42,689 bases of DNA from a virus. Taxonomy: Duplodnaviria; Heunggongvirae; Uroviricota; Caudoviricetes. A model generated the notes under the pieces. It did not search any database, was not told the DNA's origin, and saw nothing but the letters and a program-made list of their open reading frames with translations. A program made the translations under genes and the position numbers. The stretch lies in IMG/VR virus record IMGVR_UViG_2923318301_000002; one strand, given 5' to 3'. Shown in pieces: positions 1 to 38,190 of the stretch; position 1 is the stretch's first letter; every line of letters starts with the position of its first letter.

Positions 1-327
1 ATGACTAAAAATACTCGTTTTTCCCCCGAAGTCCGTCAACGGGCAGTCCGTATGGTTCTGGAAAGTCAGAGCGAATATGACTCACAATGGGCGACAATTT
101 GTTCCATTGCTCCAAAGATTGGCTGTACGCCGGAGACTCTGCGTGTCTGGGTTCGCCAGCATGAGCGGGATACCGGGGGCGGTGATGGAGGGCTCACCAC
201 CGCTGAACGTCAGCGTCTGAAAGAGCTGGAACGTGAAAATCGTGAACTGCGCCGCAGTAACGATATCCTTCGCCAGGCTTCCGCTTATTTTGCGAAGGCG
301 GAGTTCGACCGCCTCTGGAAAAAATGA
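1..327 (+). CDS. IS3-family transposase OrfA (HTH subunit)
   Basis: 108-aa [22 protein letters not shown]... with leucine-zipper-like C-terminus; stop overlaps orfB start across an A6 run (ggaaaaaatga), typical of IS3-family −1 frameshifting. Confidence 0.85.
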
Positions 328-1214
328 TGCCACTGCTGGATAAGCTGCGTGAGCAGTACGGGGTCGGACCGCTATGCAGCGAACTGCATATTGCCCCGTC
401 AACGTATTACCACTGTCAGCAACAGCGACATCATCCGGATAAACGCAGTGCCCGTGCGCAGCGCGATGACTGGCTGAAGAAAGAGATACAGCGCGTATAC
501 GATGAAAATCACAAGGTATACGGTGTGCGTAAAGTCTGGCGTCAGTTGTTACGGGAAGGTATCAGAGTGGCCAGATGCACTGTGGCACGTCTCATGGCGG
601 TTATGGGACTTGCCGGTGTTCTCCGGGGTAAAAAGGTCCGTACGACCATCAGCCGGAAAGCCGTTGCCGCAGGCGACCGCGTAAACCGTCAGTTCGTGGC
701 AGAACGACCTGACCAGCTGTGGGTGGCTGATTTTACTTACGTCAGCACATGGCGGGGCTTCGTCTATGTGGCGTTCATCATTGATGTGTTTGCCGGATAC
801 ATCGTGGGGTGGCGGGTCTCATCGTCCATGGAAACGACATTCGTGCTGGATGCACTGGAGCAGGCGTTATGGGCCCGTCGACCGTCCGGCACGGTCCATC
901 ACAGTGATAAAGGTTCTCAGTATGTATCGCTGGCCTACACACAGCGGCTTAAGGAAGCCGGATTACTGGCATCAACAGGAAGTACAGGCGACTCGTATGA
1001 CAACGCGATGGCGGAGAGCATCAATGGTCTTTACAAAGCGGAGGTAATACACCGTAAGAGCTGGAAAAACCGTGCAGAAGTGGAACTGGCCACACTCACG
1101 TGGGTGGACTGGTATAACAATCGACGATTGCTGGAAAGGCTGGGCCATACTCCTCCGGCAGAAGCAGAAAAAGCTTATTATGCTTCCATCGGAAACGATG
1201 ATCTGGCAGCCTGA
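324..1214 (+). CDS. IS3-family transposase OrfB (DDE catalytic subunit)
   Basis: 296-aa ORF in the −1 frame relative to orfA; integrase-core-like sequence (…WVADFTYV…HSDKGSQY…YDNAMAES…). Confidence 0.9.
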
Positions 1215-1216
1215 GT

Positions 1217-4200
1217 TCACAGATAAAACACTCTCCAGGAAACCCGGGGCGGTTCAGTAAGGTTTTGCCCGTCTGTTGTTTTTTGCGCATAAAACAGATA
1301 CGCAGCAGACGTTCCAACCTCAAAAACGTTTTGTCGAGTACTGGAACCCCACACCCTGATACTAACTGGTAGTTCTGAATTACCTGAATTAAGTAAAGCA
1401 AAACGATTGCCAGTCCCTGTTTGTTTTCTAATTACTAAATCGGCAGTTGAGTTAACCTCATCTTTGTTGATGGTTAGCGCCTGCGCTGTAGCACCGTTAA
1501 CAGTGCCACTTAGTAGTTGAACCGCTCCATCATCGCCATTTAACAGCACTTGAGCGCTGCTTCTGTGGTTTTTCAGGAACAACATTTTGCCTGTGCTTTC
1601 TGATGTGCCTACCGACCACGCCGAATTGGTTCCAGTGCTATCAACACCGCGCACAGCACAATTCATACTACTGTAATCTGACGTACTCCCCAGCACATCA
1701 ACACGCCCGCCGCCTAATTTTGATGGAGTCGTCGAGGTTAACGACCTGACGGTTACATCCTGATTCCATCCTGAAACAACTACCTGACTCCACTCCGTCC
1801 AGTTTCCATTGACAACAAAGCGAACGTATATGCGTTTTGTGTCGCTGCCAATCAGCGTTTGCATGATCGCATAATCTGAACCCGTAGTTTTACGAGTAGA
1901 TTCTACACGTAGCAAAAAGTTACCGCTTACGCCGTCAGGCTTATTGGTAATATATGCACCACCTGCAACAGTTTTGCATTGATAGTATTTAACAGATCCA
2001 GCCACTGTATTAGCAATGATCAAGTCGTTTAAATCAATAGTCTTGTTGTCAATGGTTTCCGGCTCGATAGATCCCGCCATACCTGCGTTAAATGTGGCAA
2101 AGTCAGAAAAGGTTGTTTTACCGCCTACCGTCACCCCGCTATCGAGTTTTGCTTGTGTGATTACTTTGCTGTTTTTTGTGTGGTCAGAATAACTACCAAA
2201 ATACAAATCACCGTCACCAGCTATACCCAGGTATTTTTGATCAACATCATCAACCTTAAACCCAATGGACAAGTTTTTAATTGTGTTGTTGCTCGTTAAA
2301 ACCAAAGGCGTATGCTGAGATCCTTTGATGCTTACCGTAGTGTTATCGGAACTGGTGCTTGTGTTTGCAAATTCTGCGGTGGCTGCGCTGATTTTGTAAG
2401 TTATTTTTAGATTGCGGGCCTCAACCCTCCCGTCGTGGCGAACAATAAAATCACCACTTGATTCACCTTTTGTGTTTTTCGCCCTGATGTGGATTTCGCC
2501 AAGTGATTCGTTGTTTTCAGGCGACCAAACAACGCCGCGCTCGCTTCCGTCGTTGTTCATGAACCACAGATGAGCGGTTCCTTTTGCTGATTTTAGCCTG
2601 ATAGATGGCGTTTCTTTCAATATATCAAGATCACCAGACATAACATCGCCGGATTTTTTCACCTGCGCATCGTTAGTTACGTTGCCAAGTCCAACATCCG
2701 ATTTCGACGGCTTGTTTGCCGAGCCGTATAGCTCATTGATGCTAAAAGTCCCGTTGTTAAGCCGGGCATCGTTGCCGGCATAGATCTTAATCTTCGCGGT
2801 TGAGTAGTCGATATTGATCGCTGACCACGTATCGCCGCACCGCGAGAATATACCAGAACCGTGGCTATAAATGGTCGCCGTGCTTCCGGTCGGCTTATCA
2901 CCGCGCCAGAAATGACCACCTTTGTCACGCAGAGCTTTTAAGATCTCTACATCGCTCATCTTGCCGTTTGTTGATATCCCGCTACCGCCAAGACCGAAAG
3001 CGCCTGTAAGCATAGCATTAGAAAGACCCAAATCTGCTTTAGTCGGCTTGTTTAACTGGTCGTAAATCCTTACAACGGGGCTTTCAACATATCCAGAAGG
3101 CGCGGCGGTTTGCTTAACAAATCCGTCTGGAATGTATAATTCCGGGCGTGCCGTCTGCGCCAGCACCGCAACCTTTGCGCCGTTGATAAATGCGCGCTGG
3201 AAGGCCCAAACCTCAATAAAGCCGTCACCTTTAACCAGGCCGTAACGCATCTGGTTGTTATCGGTCAGCCCGGTTGACCCTAAGCGGCGTATACTCAGAT
3301 GACGAGAAACATTATCCGCACTAAGCAAAGAAGGCAGACCGCGCGCCGAGATCTCGATAAAGTCAATGTTTCCGTAAGGGGAGCCGTAGTTACCGGCATT
3401 AGTAACCATTAGCGTTACATGGCAATTGCCGCTTCCGGGATCGGAAAGTTTCGCGATCTTTATGTAAAAAGACTCATTACCAGTAACAACGGGCCAATCG
3501 TATTGCGTCATCGGGCTGACGAGTCCCCCGACCTTGTCGAGATATTCTTTCGCCTTGTTCTCTGACGCTTTAGCGTTGGTTTCGCTGACCTTTGCTGCTG
3601 CCTCACTATTTTTCGCGTTGGTTTCTGATTTTTTGGCTGCTGTCGCGGAGTTTGCCGATGCAGTTTGTGAGTCTGCTGCCGCCTGTGCGCTGTTATCCGC
3701 ATTCGTCTCAGACGTTTTTGCGGCCTTCGCGGAATTTCCTGCTGCCGTTGCCGAGGAAGCTGCACTGCCGGCGCTCGAGGCAGCGCTCGTTTCTGATGAT
3801 TTTGCCGCCACTTTTGAAGCCGACGCATCCCGGGCTGAGGTGGCAGCTTCTGACGCTTTCGTGGTCGCGGTGGATGCAGATGTGGCCGCAGATTTTTGTG
3901 ATGCTGCGGCATTCATTTCCGACGTTTTCGCTGCACCGGCACTGGTGGCTGCCGCGCTTTTTGAAGACTCTGCGGCGGCAGCACTTTTTGATGCTTCAGT
4001 GGCCTTTGTTGATGCCGTTCCTGCGCTGGAAGACGCTGACTGAGCCGACGACGCGGCCTGTCCGGCTGACGTGCTGGCTGCACGTGCTGAGCCTGCAGCA
4101 TCAGTCGCACGGGTTGCCGCCTCACGGGCTGATGTGCTGGCATCGCTGGCTGACTTCTTCGCGGCTGCCGTGTTCTGTGCCACCGCGGACGCGTTACGCG

Positions 4201-26330: not shown

Positions 26331-27396
26331 TGAATTGTCAAACCAAGTGCAACGATTTTTTGAAGTAAACTTCATAAGGTGTTTTCCAACCTAAACATTT
26401 ACGTGGTCGTAAATTCAGTTTATTGATCACCTGTTGAATATCAACTTCGCTCCACTGATTGATGTCTTGGTGCTTCGGAAAGTATTCACGAAGTAACCCA
26501 TTTGTATTTTCATTCGTTCCCCGTGTCCACGGTTGATGCGGCTCGGGGAAGTAAAATTCTACACCCAGTGCTTCTGTTACCAAACGATGTTGGGCAAATT
26601 CTTTACCACGGTCTGGCGTAATTGACCGCAATATATGTGAATCCAGCAATTCAATCATGGCTTTTTGGACTGCTTCGGCTTTTTTGGCAGGAATTTTCTT
26701 CACCAACTCAAAACGACTTTTGCGTTCCGTCAGCGTCAGCAAACAAGCTCCACCCGCTTTACCCAGTACGGTATCGGCTTCCCAATGTCCAAAGCGACTG
26801 CGATTTTGCGCCGAAATGGGACGGTCGTTCAAATGGTTGGATATCTGAATTTTGCCACGTTTTTCATGATGATTTTTTGTATGCCGTGTTTTGCCTTTGT
26901 GGCGCAGTTTGCGACTGGCTTTGCGTTCGCCTATATCAAACAACCCTGAATAAATACCACGATAAATGGTTGAATAACTAATGGATAATTCAGATTTTTC
27001 CAATTTTAATCGTGCGCTGATTTGTTCGGGCGACCAGTTTTCTGTCAGAAACTTTTCTTGCACCAAATTGAAATATTCAGGCTGCTCTAATTTGCGCTGT
27101 GCTTTGCTATTTTGACGATGCTTCAAATAGCTGTTTTGTGCGTTCGTTGCACTGTAGCTTTCTAGAGCGTGTCGTTTCAGCTCGCGAGAAATGGTGCTGG
27201 AGCTACGTCCCAGTGCTTTGGCAATTTCTGCTTGTTTTTTGCCCTGTGCGAGTAAAATCATTATCTTTTCTCGCTCGTTTATTGTAAGATGTCGGTAGGA
27301 AGTACTCATCATTTGGAAATGGTTTTTGTGTGGAAACAAAATTATATTCTAGTTGATGAGTACTTCTTTTTTTGTTGCACTTGGATTGTAAATTCA
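26331..27396 (-). mobile_element. IS30-family insertion sequence (~1.07 kb)
   Basis: Single transposase ORF flanked by imperfect terminal inverted repeats (left …tgaattgtcaaaccaagtgcaac, right gttgcacttggattgtaaattca); ends uncertain by ±1-2 bp. Confidence 0.7.
26338..27312 (-). CDS. IS30-family transposase
   Basis: N-terminal HTH (…LTINEREKIMILLAQGKKQAEIAKALGRSSSTISRELKR…) and DDE region (…HWEADTV…RGTNENTNGLLR…); start at ATGATG 27312. Confidence 0.85.
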   Translation of the reverse strand: MMSTSYRHLTINEREKIMILLAQGKKQAEIAKALGRSSSTISRELKRHALESYSATNAQNSYLKHRQNSKAQRKLEQPEYFNLVQEKFLTENWSPEQISARLKLEKSELSISYSTIYRGIYSGLFDIGERKASRKLRHKGKTRHTKNHHEKRGKIQISNHLNDRPISAQNRSRFGHWEADTVLGKAGGACLLTLTERKSRFELVKKIPAKKAEAVQKAMIELLDSHILRSITPDRGKEFAQHRLVTEALGVEFYFPEPHQPWTRGTNENTNGLLREYFPKHQDINQWSEVDIQQVINKLNLRPRKCLGWKTPYEVYFKKSLHLV

Positions 27397-27631: not shown

Positions 27632-27967
27632 ATGAAGTGGATTGTAATTGATACAGTTATCCAGCCATCATGCGGAATATCTTTTTCAGTCATATGGAGT
27701 AAAGTAAAATTAATAATCTGGTATCAATCGGATGCTTTCTTACCTCCTGAAAGTATATTTACACTGACTCACACAGGTATCATGCTCAATAACAAAGTGC
27801 TACCTGTAACCATTTACAACGTAGTACCATTCAATAAAACATTCTGGAATTTAATCAAAAACAGCCAGGAATGCCCTACAAATACAGATAACGTATTGAA
27901 TGAATGCTTTAATAACCGTTGCATTCTGCAAATATGTCCTTATGGACTAAAACAACAAAGTCCATAA
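27632..27967 (+). CDS. Hypothetical protein, AT-rich accessory gene (111 aa, 6 Cys)
   Basis: AAGGAAG RBS 6 nt upstream of ATG; strongly AT-rich relative to the prophage backbone; convergent with late transcription. Confidence 0.45.
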
Positions 27968-28002
27968 GGAGTTTACTCACATCTGACAAAATCAATATAA
28001 AC

Positions 28003-28193
28003 AGCCCCTCCGGAGAGGGGCTGGAGAGTGGCGCTATGTGCCATTGCATGGTGCCGGGTGCCTCCCGGTGAATTCAGTACCAGCACCTGAATCCGCGATT
28101 ATCCCATATACCTACTCGCTGATTACCCCTCCGCACAGGGGGATTCACCATGCGAAATTTTTTAACAAACTTCCCGCCGGCCAGACAATAATC
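28003..28193 (-). repeat. Structured element copy A (candidate ncRNA; paralogue of copy B)
   Basis: Shares with copy B a terminal hairpin AGCCCCTCCGGAGAGGGGCT and conserved blocks (GCATGGTGCC.GG.GCCTCCCGGT.AATTCAG; GGGGGATTCACCATGCGA; TTTTTAACAAA…GCCAGACAAT.ATC); stem partners are conserved while loops differ. Confidence 0.5.
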
Positions 28194-28465
28194 GCCAGCC
28201 TGAATTATGAGCAACGTGGCATTTTACGGGAAAACTGTTTTCTGCAGTAAAAAGGCCCGCCGGAGCGAGCCTGGAAGGATAGCGGTCATGTGATGCCGGT
28301 TTCCCGGTAACTCAGCATCGGTATCTGAGTCAACGTTTTCTCTACTGGGTCATTTCCGATACGTTCCGCCTTCCGGCAGACTTTCATCACGTCAGAAAAT
28401 ATAGCACCCTGAGTAACAGGACAGTACTCAGAATTCAGGAAACTGTGACACATCCTGCACAGAAA

Positions 28466-28663
28466 AGCCCCTCCGGAGAGGGGCTGAAGTATAGCCTAAT
28501 TTCTGTCTGTCGCATGGTGCCAGGGGCCTCCCGGTAAATTCAGCCTGTCTACTGAATTTGCATGTTCTCTGGATCATACACTTTGCCAGATGCCCCGCCG
28601 CTGAGGGGGATTCACCATGCGATGTAATTTTTAACAAATTCTCCGGCAGCCAGACAATCATCA
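28466..28663 (-). repeat. Structured element copy B (candidate ncRNA; paralogue of copy A)
   Basis: As copy A; on the minus strand the terminal hairpin is followed by TTTTCTGTG. Confidence 0.5.
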
Positions 28664-28856
28664 AGCTGTGGAATTGTGAGGTATTTAAAAATTTCAACGG
28701 GTAACTGATACCCTGCTAATCGCCTGATGCTTTCTTTTTCAGCAACGGGAAAGCAACAACCACACACCCGCCACCAAAACACCATCAGACAGCACCGACA
28801 TTATCCGGCTGCTGAAGTCCACCATCACCACCAGAAACAACAGGAGTGCAACCACA

Positions 28857-28900
28857 GCTGCTTAGAAGGCAATTGCTCTGCCCGGCTGAGCTAACAACGC
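28857..28900 (-). other. tRNA-like 5' fragment (acceptor, D arm and anticodon arm with UCU-like anticodon); no T arm or 3' acceptor
   Basis: GCGTTGTTAGCTCAGCCGGGCAGAGCAATTGCCTTCTAAGCAGC folds as the 5' two-thirds of a tRNA; downstream sequence gives no T stem or ACAACGC-CCA. Confidence 0.3.
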
Positions 28901-29000
28901 TGAATACCGATAATGGACCGCCATCGGGGACCCGCCCCCGCACCAACAACCCTGTTATCGTGTCGTCTGCTCTTCCTGATAAGCTAATGGCGGTTTGTGA

Positions 29001-29076
29001 TGGTGGCCCTTGCTGGATTTGAACCAGCGACCTGGCGATTATGAGTCGCTCGCTCTCACCACTGAGCTAAAGGGCC
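29001..29076 (-). tRNA. tRNA with CAU anticodon (Met or Ile2/lysidine type; ileZ-like of lambdoid phages)
   Basis: 76-nt cloverleaf folded by hand: acceptor GGCCCTT/AAGGGCC, D arm GCTC…GAGC, anticodon loop CTCATAA, T arm GCTGG-TTCAAAT-CCAGC, 3' CCA encoded. Confidence 0.9.
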
Positions 29077-29113
29077 GGGAGTAGAATAATAACGGTCCGT
29101 AACTAATTCCGCA

Positions 29114-29137
29114 ATAAAAAACCCGCTCGGCGGCGGG
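29114..29137 (-). terminator. tR'-like intrinsic terminator downstream of the late promoter
   Basis: Hairpin cccgccgccgagcggg followed on the minus strand by TTTTTTAT, ~45-50 nt downstream of the predicted −10. Confidence 0.6.
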
Positions 29138-29186
29138 TTGTAGAAACTCTTCTAACGTCAGGCATAAAAAGCCCATTATTATGACG

Positions 29187-29214
29187 AATTTACCACAGAT
29201 TCCGGAAAAATCAA
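29187..29214 (-). promoter_or_regulatory. Late promoter pR'-like (−35 TTGATT, 16-nt spacer, −10 TAAATT) immediately downstream of the Q-like gene
   Basis: Sigma-70-like hexamers on the minus strand; −10 TAAATT is the same hexamer I recall for lambda pR'. Confidence 0.45.
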
Positions 29215-29219
29215 CCTTG

Positions 29220-30041
29220 TTACCTAGTTACCTTTTTTAACTGCCGCTCAGCCCATGCTTCTTCAATATCAAACCGGGTCACCAGCGCATCATAGAATTT
29301 CTTAACTGTTTTTTCCCATGACGCGCGTGTTATCTGGTTTGTCACCTCGCATATAGCATTAAATGTCTCCGTTGATGGTAGTCTTTCATAGCCACGACCA
29401 CCACAACGCTGGCAGTCTCTGATAACAGGCATACCACGTTTTACCGACTCTTCACGATGAATGGCGACACCACGCCCACGGCAATCCTTACAGGCGGTGG
29501 AAACCTCACCCTTTCCGCCACACTCCGGACAGGCAACTTTTACCACCTCCCTGACTTTTTTCCATTCTTCCCAGTAAGACGAATACACACCTTTCGTACA
29601 CTTTGCCCATACCGGCGGCTTACCATCCGGATACTGGACCTTGTTTGTAAAAACTACGCTTTCAATAAATTTTTCCCCATAGCAACAAGGGCACTGCTTT
29701 TTACTCGCTGCGCTGCGGGCATAATCCTCAAAAGCGTACGAAGCCATAATGCGCATCACTAACGGTTTTATTTCTGCCGGAAGTTTTCTCAACGCCGCAA
29801 CACGATCGCACCGACTGAGTGCATAATCTGCCAGTAATTCTGTTGCCCGCGCCCTGTCATTCATACTGATGCCCATTTTCCCCAGGAACGCAGAAAACCC
29901 CATCTCAGCCCGATTCTGTGTCATGCCCTGCGCGGCCATCACATCAGTGATACTCAGCGCATCTTTTGACGTTGAGGCCGATGCATCGGTCAGGCCAGGG
30001 GATTTTGGGGAGTAGTATTTCGGTAAATCTTCCAGTTTCAT
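29220..30041 (-). CDS. Putative late-gene antiterminator (Q-position) with four DnaJ-type CxxCxGxG zinc-finger motifs
   Basis: 273-aa ORF after rusA (ATGA overlap) and before the pR'/tR'/tRNA block; motifs CPCCYGEK, CPECGGKG, CKDCRGRG, CQRCGGRG; function inferred from synteny. Confidence 0.5.
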   Translation of the reverse strand: MKLEDLPKYYSPKSPGLTDASASTSKDALSITDVMAAQGMTQNRAEMGFSAFLGKMGISMNDRARATELLADYALSRCDRVAALRKLPAEIKPLVMRIMASYAFEDYARSAASKKQCPCCYGEKFIESVVFTNKVQYPDGKPPVWAKCTKGVYSSYWEEWKKVREVVKVACPECGGKGEVSTACKDCRGRGVAIHREESVKRGMPVIRDCQRCGGRGYERLPSTETFNAICEVTNQITRASWEKTVKKFYDALVTRFDIEEAWAERQLKKVTR

Positions 30042-31924: not shown

Positions 31925-32080
31925 TTACTCCTCAGGTTCGTAAGCTGTGAAGACAGCGACCTCCGTCTGGCCGGTTCGGATTCGTACCTCGCAGAGGTCT
32001 TTCCTCGTTACCAGTGCCGTCACAATGACGGTTAAACAGATGACGATCAGGGCGATTAACATCGCCTTTTGCTGCTTCAT
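31925..32080 (-). CDS. hokD: Hok/Gef family type I toxin (HokD/RelF-like)
   Basis: 51-aa ORF MKQQKAMLIALIVICLTVIVTALVTRKDLCEVRIRTGQTEVAVFTAYEPEE matches remembered HokD; an in-frame upstream extension and a structured leader are present. Confidence 0.85.
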   Translation of the reverse strand: MKQQKAMLIALIVICLTVIVTALVTRKDLCEVRIRTGQTEVAVFTAYEPEE

Positions 32081-32339
32081 AGCCTGCTTCTCCTTGCCTT
32101 TCGGCACGTAAGAGGCTAACCTAGATTTGCCGTTCATAGATTGAGCCTCAGATTAATGTTAAGCGTCTTGCAGGACGCGTAATGTTAACTGGGGCTTTTC
32201 TCTATCTGCCTTTTGGTGTTCATGCCTGAGACAGATAGCCTCAAGCACCCGCAGTCATTCTACTTAACTAAGATTTCCCCGCAAACCGTTTTTGTCCGGC
32301 ACAGTAAATATCCAACTAAACCAATGGCGTTCGCTGTAT

Positions 32340-38132: not shown

Positions 38133-38190
38133 TTTCTGGTGACGTTTGGCGGTATCAGTTTTACTCCGTGACTGCTCTGCCGCCCTTTTT
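38133..38190 (+). ncRNA. dicF: DicF-like Hfq-dependent sRNA (cell-division inhibitor RNA)
   Basis: tttctggtgacgtttggcggtatcagttttactccgtgactgctctgccgcccttttt matches remembered DicF, including the terminator hairpin and U-tail; immediately upstream of dicB. Confidence 0.7.

Follow-up and report, generated by a model that had tools for sequence, protein, structure and literature searches.

What does a protein with DnaJ-type cysteine motifs do in the antiterminator slot of a lambdoid phage? The question is raised by a stretch of 42,689 nucleotides (the window) from a virus of the Caudoviricetes, IMG/VR record IMGVR_UViG_2923318301_000002. Here an open reading frame (ORF) of 273 amino acids on the minus strand (29220..30041) is followed by sequences resembling the lambda late promoter pR' and the terminator tR'. 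A sequence-only reading had placed the protein in the antiterminator slot, and the ORF was confirmed. The protein is a lambda-family Q whose arm carries a 68-residue insertion that adds a second set of four cysteines (Cys4), and the locus is very probably the late-gene switch of an Escherichia coli lambdoid prophage of the Qin/mEp460 type, operating by lambda-like Q antitermination. The lambda mechanism is the most likely one because the protein belongs to a structurally defined family.

A long-arm member of the lambda Q family

The 273-residue protein matches the Pfam family PF03589 (Antiterm, ‘Antitermination protein Q’) at 182.8 bits against a cut-off of 26.7 (E 1.2e-54), and it matches PHROG 127, ‘anti-termination protein Q-like’, over its full length (E 2e-110). 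Neither of the Q21 (PF06530) and Q82 (PF06323) families matches it at E ≤ 0.1 in Pfam. The profile search proposed by the sequence-only reading thus places the protein among the Q antiterminators and not in an unrelated family, and no antiterminator besides Q is annotated within the surrounding 19 kb. When PDB sequences were searched with phmmer, lambda Q was recovered (7ubm_Q, E 1.3e-39; also 4mo1 and 7ubj), and BLASTP aligns the protein with lambda Q over its full length at 30% identity. The alignment to lambda Q spans residues 1-113 and 182-273 of the query, its sole gap being the 68-residue insertion.

Structure prediction, which had also been suggested as a check, agrees with this assignment. 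An AlphaFold (AF2) model was built with 61 homologues in the alignment and has a mean predicted local distance difference test score (pLDDT) of 79.2. It matches 7ubn_Q in Foldseek (E 8.5e-14, template modelling score 0.70 on the target), and all eight matches at E ≤ 0.001 are lambda Q structures. RefSeq labels the protein ‘antitermination protein’ (WP_000762879.1). On this evidence the gene is annotated here as a Q antiterminator of the long-arm subtype of the lambda Q family. Its start codon ATG shares the sequence ATGA (30041..30038) with the stop codon of rusA.

The N-terminal segment of lambda Q, residues 1-44, refolds with NusA into a nozzle in the RNA-exit channel (PMC9388147). Its counterpart here, residues 1-60 (29862..30041, minus strand), aligns without a gap to residues 1-60 of lambda Q and is well conserved, beginning MKLEDLPKYYSPKSP... 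in the window and MRLESVAKFHSPKSP... in lambda. Residues 1-27 have low pLDDT in the model, which is consistent with the free protein being disordered there.

The sequence-only reading had counted four CxxCxGxG motifs in the protein. Three are strict, at residues 171 (CPECGGKG), 184 (CKDCRGRG) and 210 (CQRCGGRG), whereas the fourth, at residue 117 (CPCCYGEK), is degenerate, keeping the cysteine pair and the first glycine and lacking the last glycine. The residue-117 motif is canonical in homologues, for example CDCCNGSG, and many homologues have four strict motifs. Across the 61 homologues C117, C119 and C120 are conserved in at least 90%, and C171, C174, C184, C187, C210 and C213 are invariant. 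Successive motifs in the protein are spaced by 54, 13 and 26 residues.

The sequence-only reading did not associate such motifs with lambda Q, yet lambda Q itself carries two of them, CRDCHGTG and CGRCKGVG. In lambda this pair forms a zinc-ribbon ‘arm’, residues 114-152, which touches positions 11-13 of the Q-binding element (QBE) and whose tip meets the repositioned region 4 of sigma (PMC9388147). The arm counterpart in the window comprises residues 182-220 (29382..29498, minus strand; CKDCRGRG ... CQRCGGRG) and aligns to lambda Q 116-154. Its Cys-to-Cys spacing of 26 residues is equal to that in lambda Q, and C184, C187, C210 and C213 align with C118, C121, C144 and C147 of lambda Q. By alignment, then, motifs 3 and 4 correspond to the single zinc ribbon of lambda Q and form a putative Cys4 zinc site. 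This lambda-equivalent arm, its tip glycine and the helix-turn-helix region are all kept.

The insertion itself appears as the alignment gap, residues 114-181 (29499..29702, minus strand), and carries the motifs at 117 and 171. In the model, motifs 1 and 2 are separated by strands that DSSP assigns to residues 125-136 and 159-170; these are long and paired and make up a predicted beta-hairpin. A presumed second Cys4 zinc site would lie at the base of this extra hairpin, in tandem to the lambda-type ribbon. The length from motif 1 to motif 2 varies among homologues from 35 to 58 residues. Searched on its own, the insertion matches no Pfam family at its cut-off. An internal duplication of the zinc ribbon was considered as a source of the second motif pair. 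The similarity between the segments preceding motif 2 and motif 4 is weak (E 0.001 in a single comparison), so that a duplication is suggested and not established; two separate PF03589 stretches were dropped as a sign of it, because lambda Q shows two stretches too.

Proteins of this type are common, the four-motif layout being found in hundreds of database entries. The DNA from Q to the downstream tRNA gene is matched in 3121 of 5426 complete E. coli genomes, with coverage of at least 80% in 2476, and the matching genomes annotate the gene ‘antitermination protein’. In the phages vB_EcoS-640R1, vB_EcoS-813R8 and mEp460_ev081 the same segment is 99-99.9% identical. The best 120 database relatives of the protein are mostly 260-277 amino acids long, the shorter ones being fragments; most have both PF03589 and PF00684 (DnaJ_CXXCXGXG) matches, and the members named by their source are called ‘antitermination protein’. 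Representatives at 50% identity fall into 236 clusters, with many full-length members of 250-280 residues matched in one stretch. Judged by gene length, Q genes of about 750-820 nt are found in ES18, Fels-1, phiEt88, Klebsiella phages and Stx2c phages, and the 621-nt form in lambda, P22, HK97 and HK620. The enlarged arm characterizes a whole ‘long-arm’ branch of the family, a large one to which QuuQ of E. coli K-12 belongs.

The late promoter and its pause element

The Q gene ends with the stop codon TAA at 29222..29220, and after a further 5 bp the late promoter begins, all of its elements lying on the minus strand. The pR' −35 hexamer, read from the sequence as TTGATT (29214..29209), occupies a position that is TTTACT in relatives and TTGACT in lambda. 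It is followed by a 16-nt spacer, TTTCCGGAATCTGTGG (29208..29193), and by the −10 hexamer TAAATT (29192..29187), which is the same as that of lambda pR'. The TGG directly before the −10, at the 3' end of the spacer, constitutes an extended −10 (TGn). Next come six nucleotides, CGTCAT (29181..29186), and a sigma-dependent pause element composed of a −10-like AATAAT and GGG (29180..29172), placed 6 nt past the −10 as is AACGAT-GGG in lambda. By analogy with lambda, transcription is predicted to start at about 29180, with a pause near +16/+17 (about 29165/29164).

The comparison that bears on this promoter covers 43 loci encoding Q relatives in Enterobacter, Klebsiella, Kluyvera, Pantoea, Erwinia and other genera. 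The relatives are 43-98% identical to Q, most of them 50-60%, and the core common to 37 of the loci reduces to 35 distinct sequences. Their consensus is TATTTAC-TTTTCCCGAATCTGTG-TTAATTT-N6-CTAACGATGGG. Conservation is at least 90% in the −35 and the spacer, 80-90% in the −10, 30-50%, the lowest value of the region within the subfamily, in the 6-7 nt after the −10, and 70-90% in the pause element AACGATGGG, which most related loci carry at this position. A pR'-like promoter 5 bp past the stop codon, at 29187-29214, had been proposed in the sequence-only reading, and its elements lie exactly there and are conserved in the 35 relatives.

That the spacer is kept better than the −10 is what a QBE embedded in the promoter predicts, and on this comparative conservation the spacer is a candidate QBE. 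A different spacer is found beside the most divergent Q proteins, those of loci L041, L043 and L044, of K-12 Qin and of lambda.

Two inverted repeats were seen near the promoter in related loci. One, AACGA...TCGTT, brackets the pause element in lambda (L003 ~1585..1609), in K-12 Qin and in most relatives (loci L004-L042); its place in the window, ~29151..29179 on the minus strand, is largely degraded. It may be the 5' hairpin of a short RNA. Its arms pair in 82.8% of cells, against at most 60% with the partner slid. One pair has changed from G-C to A-U in five related sequences, and a covariation score at least as high came from 20 of 500 shuffles. This evidence is too weak to claim a structure around the pause element.

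The other repeat, AAATAGCTCAC...GTGAGCTATTT, is 20-35 nt long and lies between the Q stop and pR' in relatives outside Escherichia (L006-L039). Its 3' arm runs into the −35 TTTACT, and it could serve to terminate early transcription. Neither the window nor E. albertii has this repeat, and in both pR' begins 5-8 bp past the stop codon.

The terminator and the predicted switch

The late promoter is followed by an intrinsic terminator, tR', found by a terminator scan at 29139..29113 on the minus strand. It reads AACCCGC-CGCCGA-GCGGGTT and then T6 A TT, with a stem at 29139..29120 of seven pairs, five of them G-C, a loop of six and a U-run that ends at 29113. The stem begins 48 nt past the −10, which bears out the earlier claim of a strong terminator about 50 nt after the promoter. 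It is the 3' hairpin in the minimum free energy (MFE) fold of the predicted transcript, and the terminated RNA is predicted to be about 65-68 nt long. The surrounding 3-kb region is enriched in terminator-like sites, with 14 against 3.1 +/- 1.4 in shuffled sequences.

Of 38 loci, 28 have a hairpin and T-run in the corresponding position, ending about 51-65 nt past the predicted start. The hairpins are of several unrelated sequences, so that it is the position and not the sequence that is conserved. Where such a terminator is present in the related loci, the RNA is predicted to be about 60-75 nt long. The compact pR'-tR' unit, to which the sequence-only reading had drawn attention, is therefore typical of the Q subfamily, K-12 Qin included, and not peculiar to this locus.

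Taken together, these elements suggest the following course of events. At the end of the early-right operon, translation of Q would be coupled to that of rusA. RNA polymerase would start near 29180, and sigma-70 would bind again at AATAAT-GGG in the initial transcribed region, causing a pause at about +16/+17. If Q is absent, the polymerase would stop at 29139..29113 and free the RNA of about 65-68 nt. If Q is present, it would use its helix-turn-helix body and zinc-ribbon arm to bind the conserved spacer as its QBE, and would contact the paused polymerase. With NusA, the N-terminal ~45 residues of Q would then take the shape of a nozzle and, by constricting the RNA-exit channel, keep terminator hairpins from forming. 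The nozzle, the binding to the QBE and the engagement of the paused polymerase follow the loading model of lambda Q (PMC9388147). The polymerase modified in this way would ignore tR' and further terminators and go on, along the minus strand, through the tRNA, the two STnc100 small RNA (sRNA) copies and the genes for lysis and morphogenesis.

The functional reading of Q, pR' and tR' as one switch, already put forward from the sequence, holds in essence: it is supported by family membership and by conservation of the promoter, the pause element and the terminator. Family membership, the predicted fold, the position of the gene and the conservation of these elements and of the spacer are shown; promoter activity, the pause, the binding of Q to the spacer, antitermination, occupancy of the second site by zinc and any role of the insertion are inferred.

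Several observations count against this interpretation. The promoter matches the consensus at only 8 of 12 positions, and a simple scan with a threshold of 9/12 missed it; on consensus alone it would not stand above chance, and because the match is weak the pR' call rests on comparative conservation. The pause element reads AATAAT in the window and AACGAT in the family. The 6-mer just upstream of it, TCGTCA, agrees with a −35-like element at only four of six positions, and the subfamily does not conserve it. An IS30-family insertion sequence (IS) between Q and the lysis genes may mean that the prophage is not fully functional. Finally, no experiment on this protein or on any other long-arm Q, and no structural work on the type, came up in the literature searches.

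Loading of a long-arm Q

In lambda, repositioned sigma region 4 sits on the TTGACT that adjoins the pause element (PMC9388147). The departures of the pause element and of the −35-like element therefore mean that details of loading may differ from those of lambda, and where no conserved −35-like element exists there is room, albeit with a rather low probability, for a modified loading geometry. A broader proposal is that the enlarged arm gives Q a loading mode unlike that of lambda Q, through a longer QBE reaching the −35 or through direct contact with RNA polymerase or sigma. This is conceivable but unlikely. The 68-residue insertion with its conserved cysteines does lie within the module that touches the QBE and sigma region 4 in lambda, and the conserved block upstream of the −10 extends over ~23 nt (TATTTACTTTTCCCGAATCTGTG) compared with a lambda QBE of 13 bp, although the −35 hexamer accounts for part of these 23 nt. 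The segment from the −10 to the pause element, where lambda has TTGACT, is also the part that the subfamily conserves least. Set against this, the hairpin varies widely in length and tip (35-58 residues, with that of K-12 QuuQ 23 residues shorter), which is unlike a precise conserved contact, and lambda-like loading needs no extra element, since the lambda-equivalent arm, the tip glycine and the helix-turn-helix are kept.

A more specific form of the idea concerns the whole long-arm branch, to which the window protein, K-12 QuuQ and the products of the long Q genes in ES18 and Fels-1 belong. Its members might bind two zincs and use the extra hairpin for a contact that lambda Q lacks, a tentative suggestion to which a low probability is given. 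Such a contact could be to a longer QBE extending to the −35. Alternatively, Q could hold sigma region 4 or the polymerase directly, in place of the −35-like element of lambda. Were it true, the loading of Q in the commonest Q type of E. coli prophages would depart mechanistically from the lambda paradigm. Lambda-like loading is nevertheless preferred here for the locus.

The short RNA

The product of pR' and tR' raises a second alternative, namely that the RNA of about 65-68 nt is itself a regulator, acting in trans or in cis in lysogens in the manner of StxS or IsrK. The terminated pR' transcript of Shiga toxin (Stx) phages, StxS, is an sRNA bound by Hfq (PMC7547250), a Q-like gene immediately precedes IsrK in Gifsy-1 (PMC4825925), and a Rho-independent terminator with a U-run, as found here, is the usual Hfq-binding 3' end. 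The comparison with Gifsy-1 is weakened by its AntQ, which is of the Q82 type and thus outside the lambda Q family; for this reason the short RNA was dropped as a relative of IsrK. In Rfam, 29113..29180 matches no family at its gathering score, isrK (RF01394) reaching 14 bits against a required 50 (E 1.9). The fold of the RNA is not clearly better than that of shuffled sequences (z −1.87, with 11 of 200 shuffles as good), and past the pause element the relatives swap both the transcribed sequence and the terminator freely, which fits a purely structural role. A regulatory function for the RNA is accordingly regarded as doubtful.

In a wider Rfam search over 28650..29260 at E ≤ 10, Trp_leader (25.7 bits) and the same isrK match were returned; both are sub-threshold, probably driven by the terminator, and were set aside.

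Genes around the switch

On the minus strand the order of elements is hokD, DUF968, rusA, Q, pR', tR' and tRNA, and then holin, lysozyme, terminase, portal, capsid and tail. Upstream of Q lie a DUF968/HNH gene and then the RusA gene, preceded by a hokD/sok module in which a hokD-like ORF and the sok antitoxin RNA (RF01794, 112 bits in Rfam) occupy 31925..32250 (minus strand), ahead of the DUF968-rusA-Q block. In the record of mEp460_ev081 the DUF968/HNH gene (L002 3587..4636) is labelled ‘Phage antitermination protein Q’, probably wrongly.

The first gene past tR' is a tRNA gene with a CAT anticodon (29001..29076, minus strand; ARAGORN, and 72.5 bits for tRNA in Rfam), which resembles ileZ, a tRNA-Ile2. 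It is Met according to ARAGORN and tRNA-Ile according to PGAP, and its segment shares 94% identity with the ileZ-argN stretch in Stx phages. The gap between tR' and this gene is too small to hold a promoter of its own; therefore, the tRNA and all later genes depend on read-through, in line with the sequence-only reading. A partial tRNA match at 28857..28891 (minus strand; 13.9 bits, model positions 10-42) is a remnant of a tRNA-Arg gene that looks like a decayed argN or argO, and downstream of it, on the late strand, lies a DUF3927 mini-ORF.

Two copies of the STnc100 sRNA (RF02076) follow on the minus strand, at 28650..28457 (138 bits) and 28181..27993 (132.5 bits), the gathering score being 47. 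They are tandem direct repeats about 467 nt apart in the orientation of late transcription, and each copy ends in a terminator hairpin. With a further hairpin at 28272..28253 between the copies, late transcription would meet three additional terminator-like sites, and such extra terminators in the late region would fit processive antitermination of the Q type. A 2026 preprint ties STnc100 and PasD sRNAs to neighbourhoods with a PF03589 Q gene (10.64898/2026.05.13.724894).

On the opposite strand, an ORF of 111 amino acids (27632..27967, plus strand) matches what RefSeq annotates as IraM, an anti-adapter protein. This gene is part of the cargo region between Q and the lysis genes and opposes late transcription, so that transcripts reading through from pR' would run antisense to it. 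An ORF for an IS30-family transposase of 333 amino acids (26338..27339, minus strand, from the ORF list) lies between iraM and the lysis cassette. Genomes that are otherwise 100% identical cover 96% of a 24.7-kb query in two or three pieces, and the insertion appears to be specific to this strain.

This insertion, missing from the otherwise identical genomes, is one reason to ask whether the locus is a decaying remnant in which Q and pR' can still be recognized and the late-gene switch is dead in this strain. The surroundings resemble the cryptic Qin and Rac regions (dicB, dicF, ydfC, hokD), the downstream DUF1737 gene is partial, and one early-region gene is frameshifted in the reference annotation. 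Such decay does not extend to Q, whose ORF is unbroken and recurs without change in hundreds of genomes, or to the Q-to-tRNA segment, which isolated phages share at 99-99.9% identity. The ORFs for lysis, terminase, portal, capsid and tail form a complete set on the late strand, and the IS element is not necessarily polar, since a Q-modified polymerase passes terminators. A dead switch is thus considered quite improbable.

Two further RNA features lie away from the switch. The DicF sRNA is found in the early region (38134..38185, plus strand; 76.7 bits in Rfam), and an ALIL frameshift pseudoknot (282..398, plus strand; 120 bits in Rfam) marks an IS3-family element near the tail-fibre end.

The resemblance to DnaJ

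The motifs that prompted the question remain to be placed. The CxxCxGxG type of motif is common to Q and the cysteine-rich domain of DnaJ, and over about 50 residues the protein shows weak profile and fold matches to that domain. In the profile check suggested by the sequence-only reading it scores 29.3 bits with PF00684, under the cut-off of 32.7; K-12 QuuQ scores 35.4. The TIGR02349 DnaJ model gives 27.4 bits against a cut-off of 377. The zinc sites of the DnaJ cysteine-rich domain, a V-shaped hairpin domain, are nested, being formed by motifs 1 and 4 and by motifs 2 and 3. In Q, by contrast, the model and the alignment point to probable tandem sites, which would be made of motifs 1 and 2 and of motifs 3 and 4. 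A Serratia homologue of Q (P0037) is labelled ‘chaperone protein DnaJ’, probably in error.

That the protein might be a DnaJ-like zinc-finger chaperone or redox protein sitting in the Q slot, with antitermination performed by something else, is highly improbable despite the shared motif type, given its end-to-end homology to lambda Q with a gap only at the insertion, the lack of any Pfam match to the J domain or the DnaJ C-terminal domain at E ≤ 0.1, the same kind of weak PF00684 match in lambda Q itself (23.1 bits), and the results for the Q21 and Q82 families and for other antiterminators in the surrounding 19 kb described above.

Significance

The cassette is a standard, already annotated lambda-family Q switch, and the novelty first claimed for it is not upheld. 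As a discovery it matters little, and two modest points remain. The commonest Q type of E. coli prophages, present in about half of complete genomes, has an enlarged arm that probably holds two zincs, whereas structural work has all been done on the 207-residue form of lambda Q. The late-promoter consensus of the subfamily (TTTACT/TTGATT, TTTCCSGAAWCTGTGK, TAATTT/TAAATT, N6, AACGATGGG) can be used for annotating pR', QBE and short terminated RNAs in enterobacterial prophages. These include some Stx-converting phages, in which the switch gates toxin and lysis genes.

Comparison with known systems

The antQ-isrK region of Gifsy-1 in Salmonella resembles the locus in that a short terminated RNA comes directly after a Q-like gene and has a read-through form extending into downstream genes (PMC4825925). 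It differs in that AntQ is annotated as a phage-82-type Q and that the isrK match in the window is at the level of chance (14 bits, E 1.9).

Stx phages share the layout of Q, a constitutive pR', an immediate terminator, and tRNA genes and cargo before the lysis genes. Their late region consists of tR' (the StxS sRNA; PMC7547250), ileZ-argN-argO, stx and lysis genes. In at least one Stx2a phage, Stx2_EH1910, Q is of the long-arm type and 90.8% identical to that in the window. The classical Q of 933W belongs to a different Q family. Unlike Stx phages, the window has no stx, retains one intact tRNA and a tRNA-Arg remnant, and carries as cargo the STnc100 copies, the DUF3927 ORF and iraM on the opposite strand; its short RNA has no detectable relation to a known sRNA family in Rfam.

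A closer relative is the Qin prophage of K-12. Its QuuQ (YdfT, b1559) has four cysteine-pair motifs in the same order (CEHCSGTG, CQHCHGKG, CRGCKGKG and CGRCNGNR), and DUF968/ydfU and hokD are neighbours in common. Downstream of ydfT/quuQ, TTGCAT-17-TAAAAT, AACGATGGG and a nearby terminator make up the same compact unit. QuuQ is only 42% identical to Q, however, its hairpin from motif 1 to motif 2 lacks 23 residues, its promoter has another spacer, and cold-shock genes and no tRNA lie downstream. The literature searches yielded no functional study of QuuQ.

The 6S RNA of lambda is 194 nt long, and so exceeds the 65-68 nt predicted for the terminated RNA in the window. Lambda differs also in that its promoter lies 45 bp past the Q stop as against 5 bp here, in having another spacer (QBE), of 17 nt and not 16, and in a Q that lacks the 68-residue arm insertion and the second Cys4 set. 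The TTGACT −35-like element by its pause element is not conserved in the long-arm subfamily. Nevertheless, when TTGACT-17-TAAATT-TGACTC-AACGAT-GGG of lambda is set beside TTGATT-16-TAAATT-CGTCAT-AATAAT-GGG of the window, the −10 is identical, as is the 6-nt gap to a −10-like pause element and GGG. A terminated short RNA is predicted here too, and the Q gene stands ahead of the lysis and late genes in both. The two Q proteins belong to the same family and share the same predicted fold, with an N-terminal nozzle segment, a helix-turn-helix body and a Cys4 zinc-ribbon arm.

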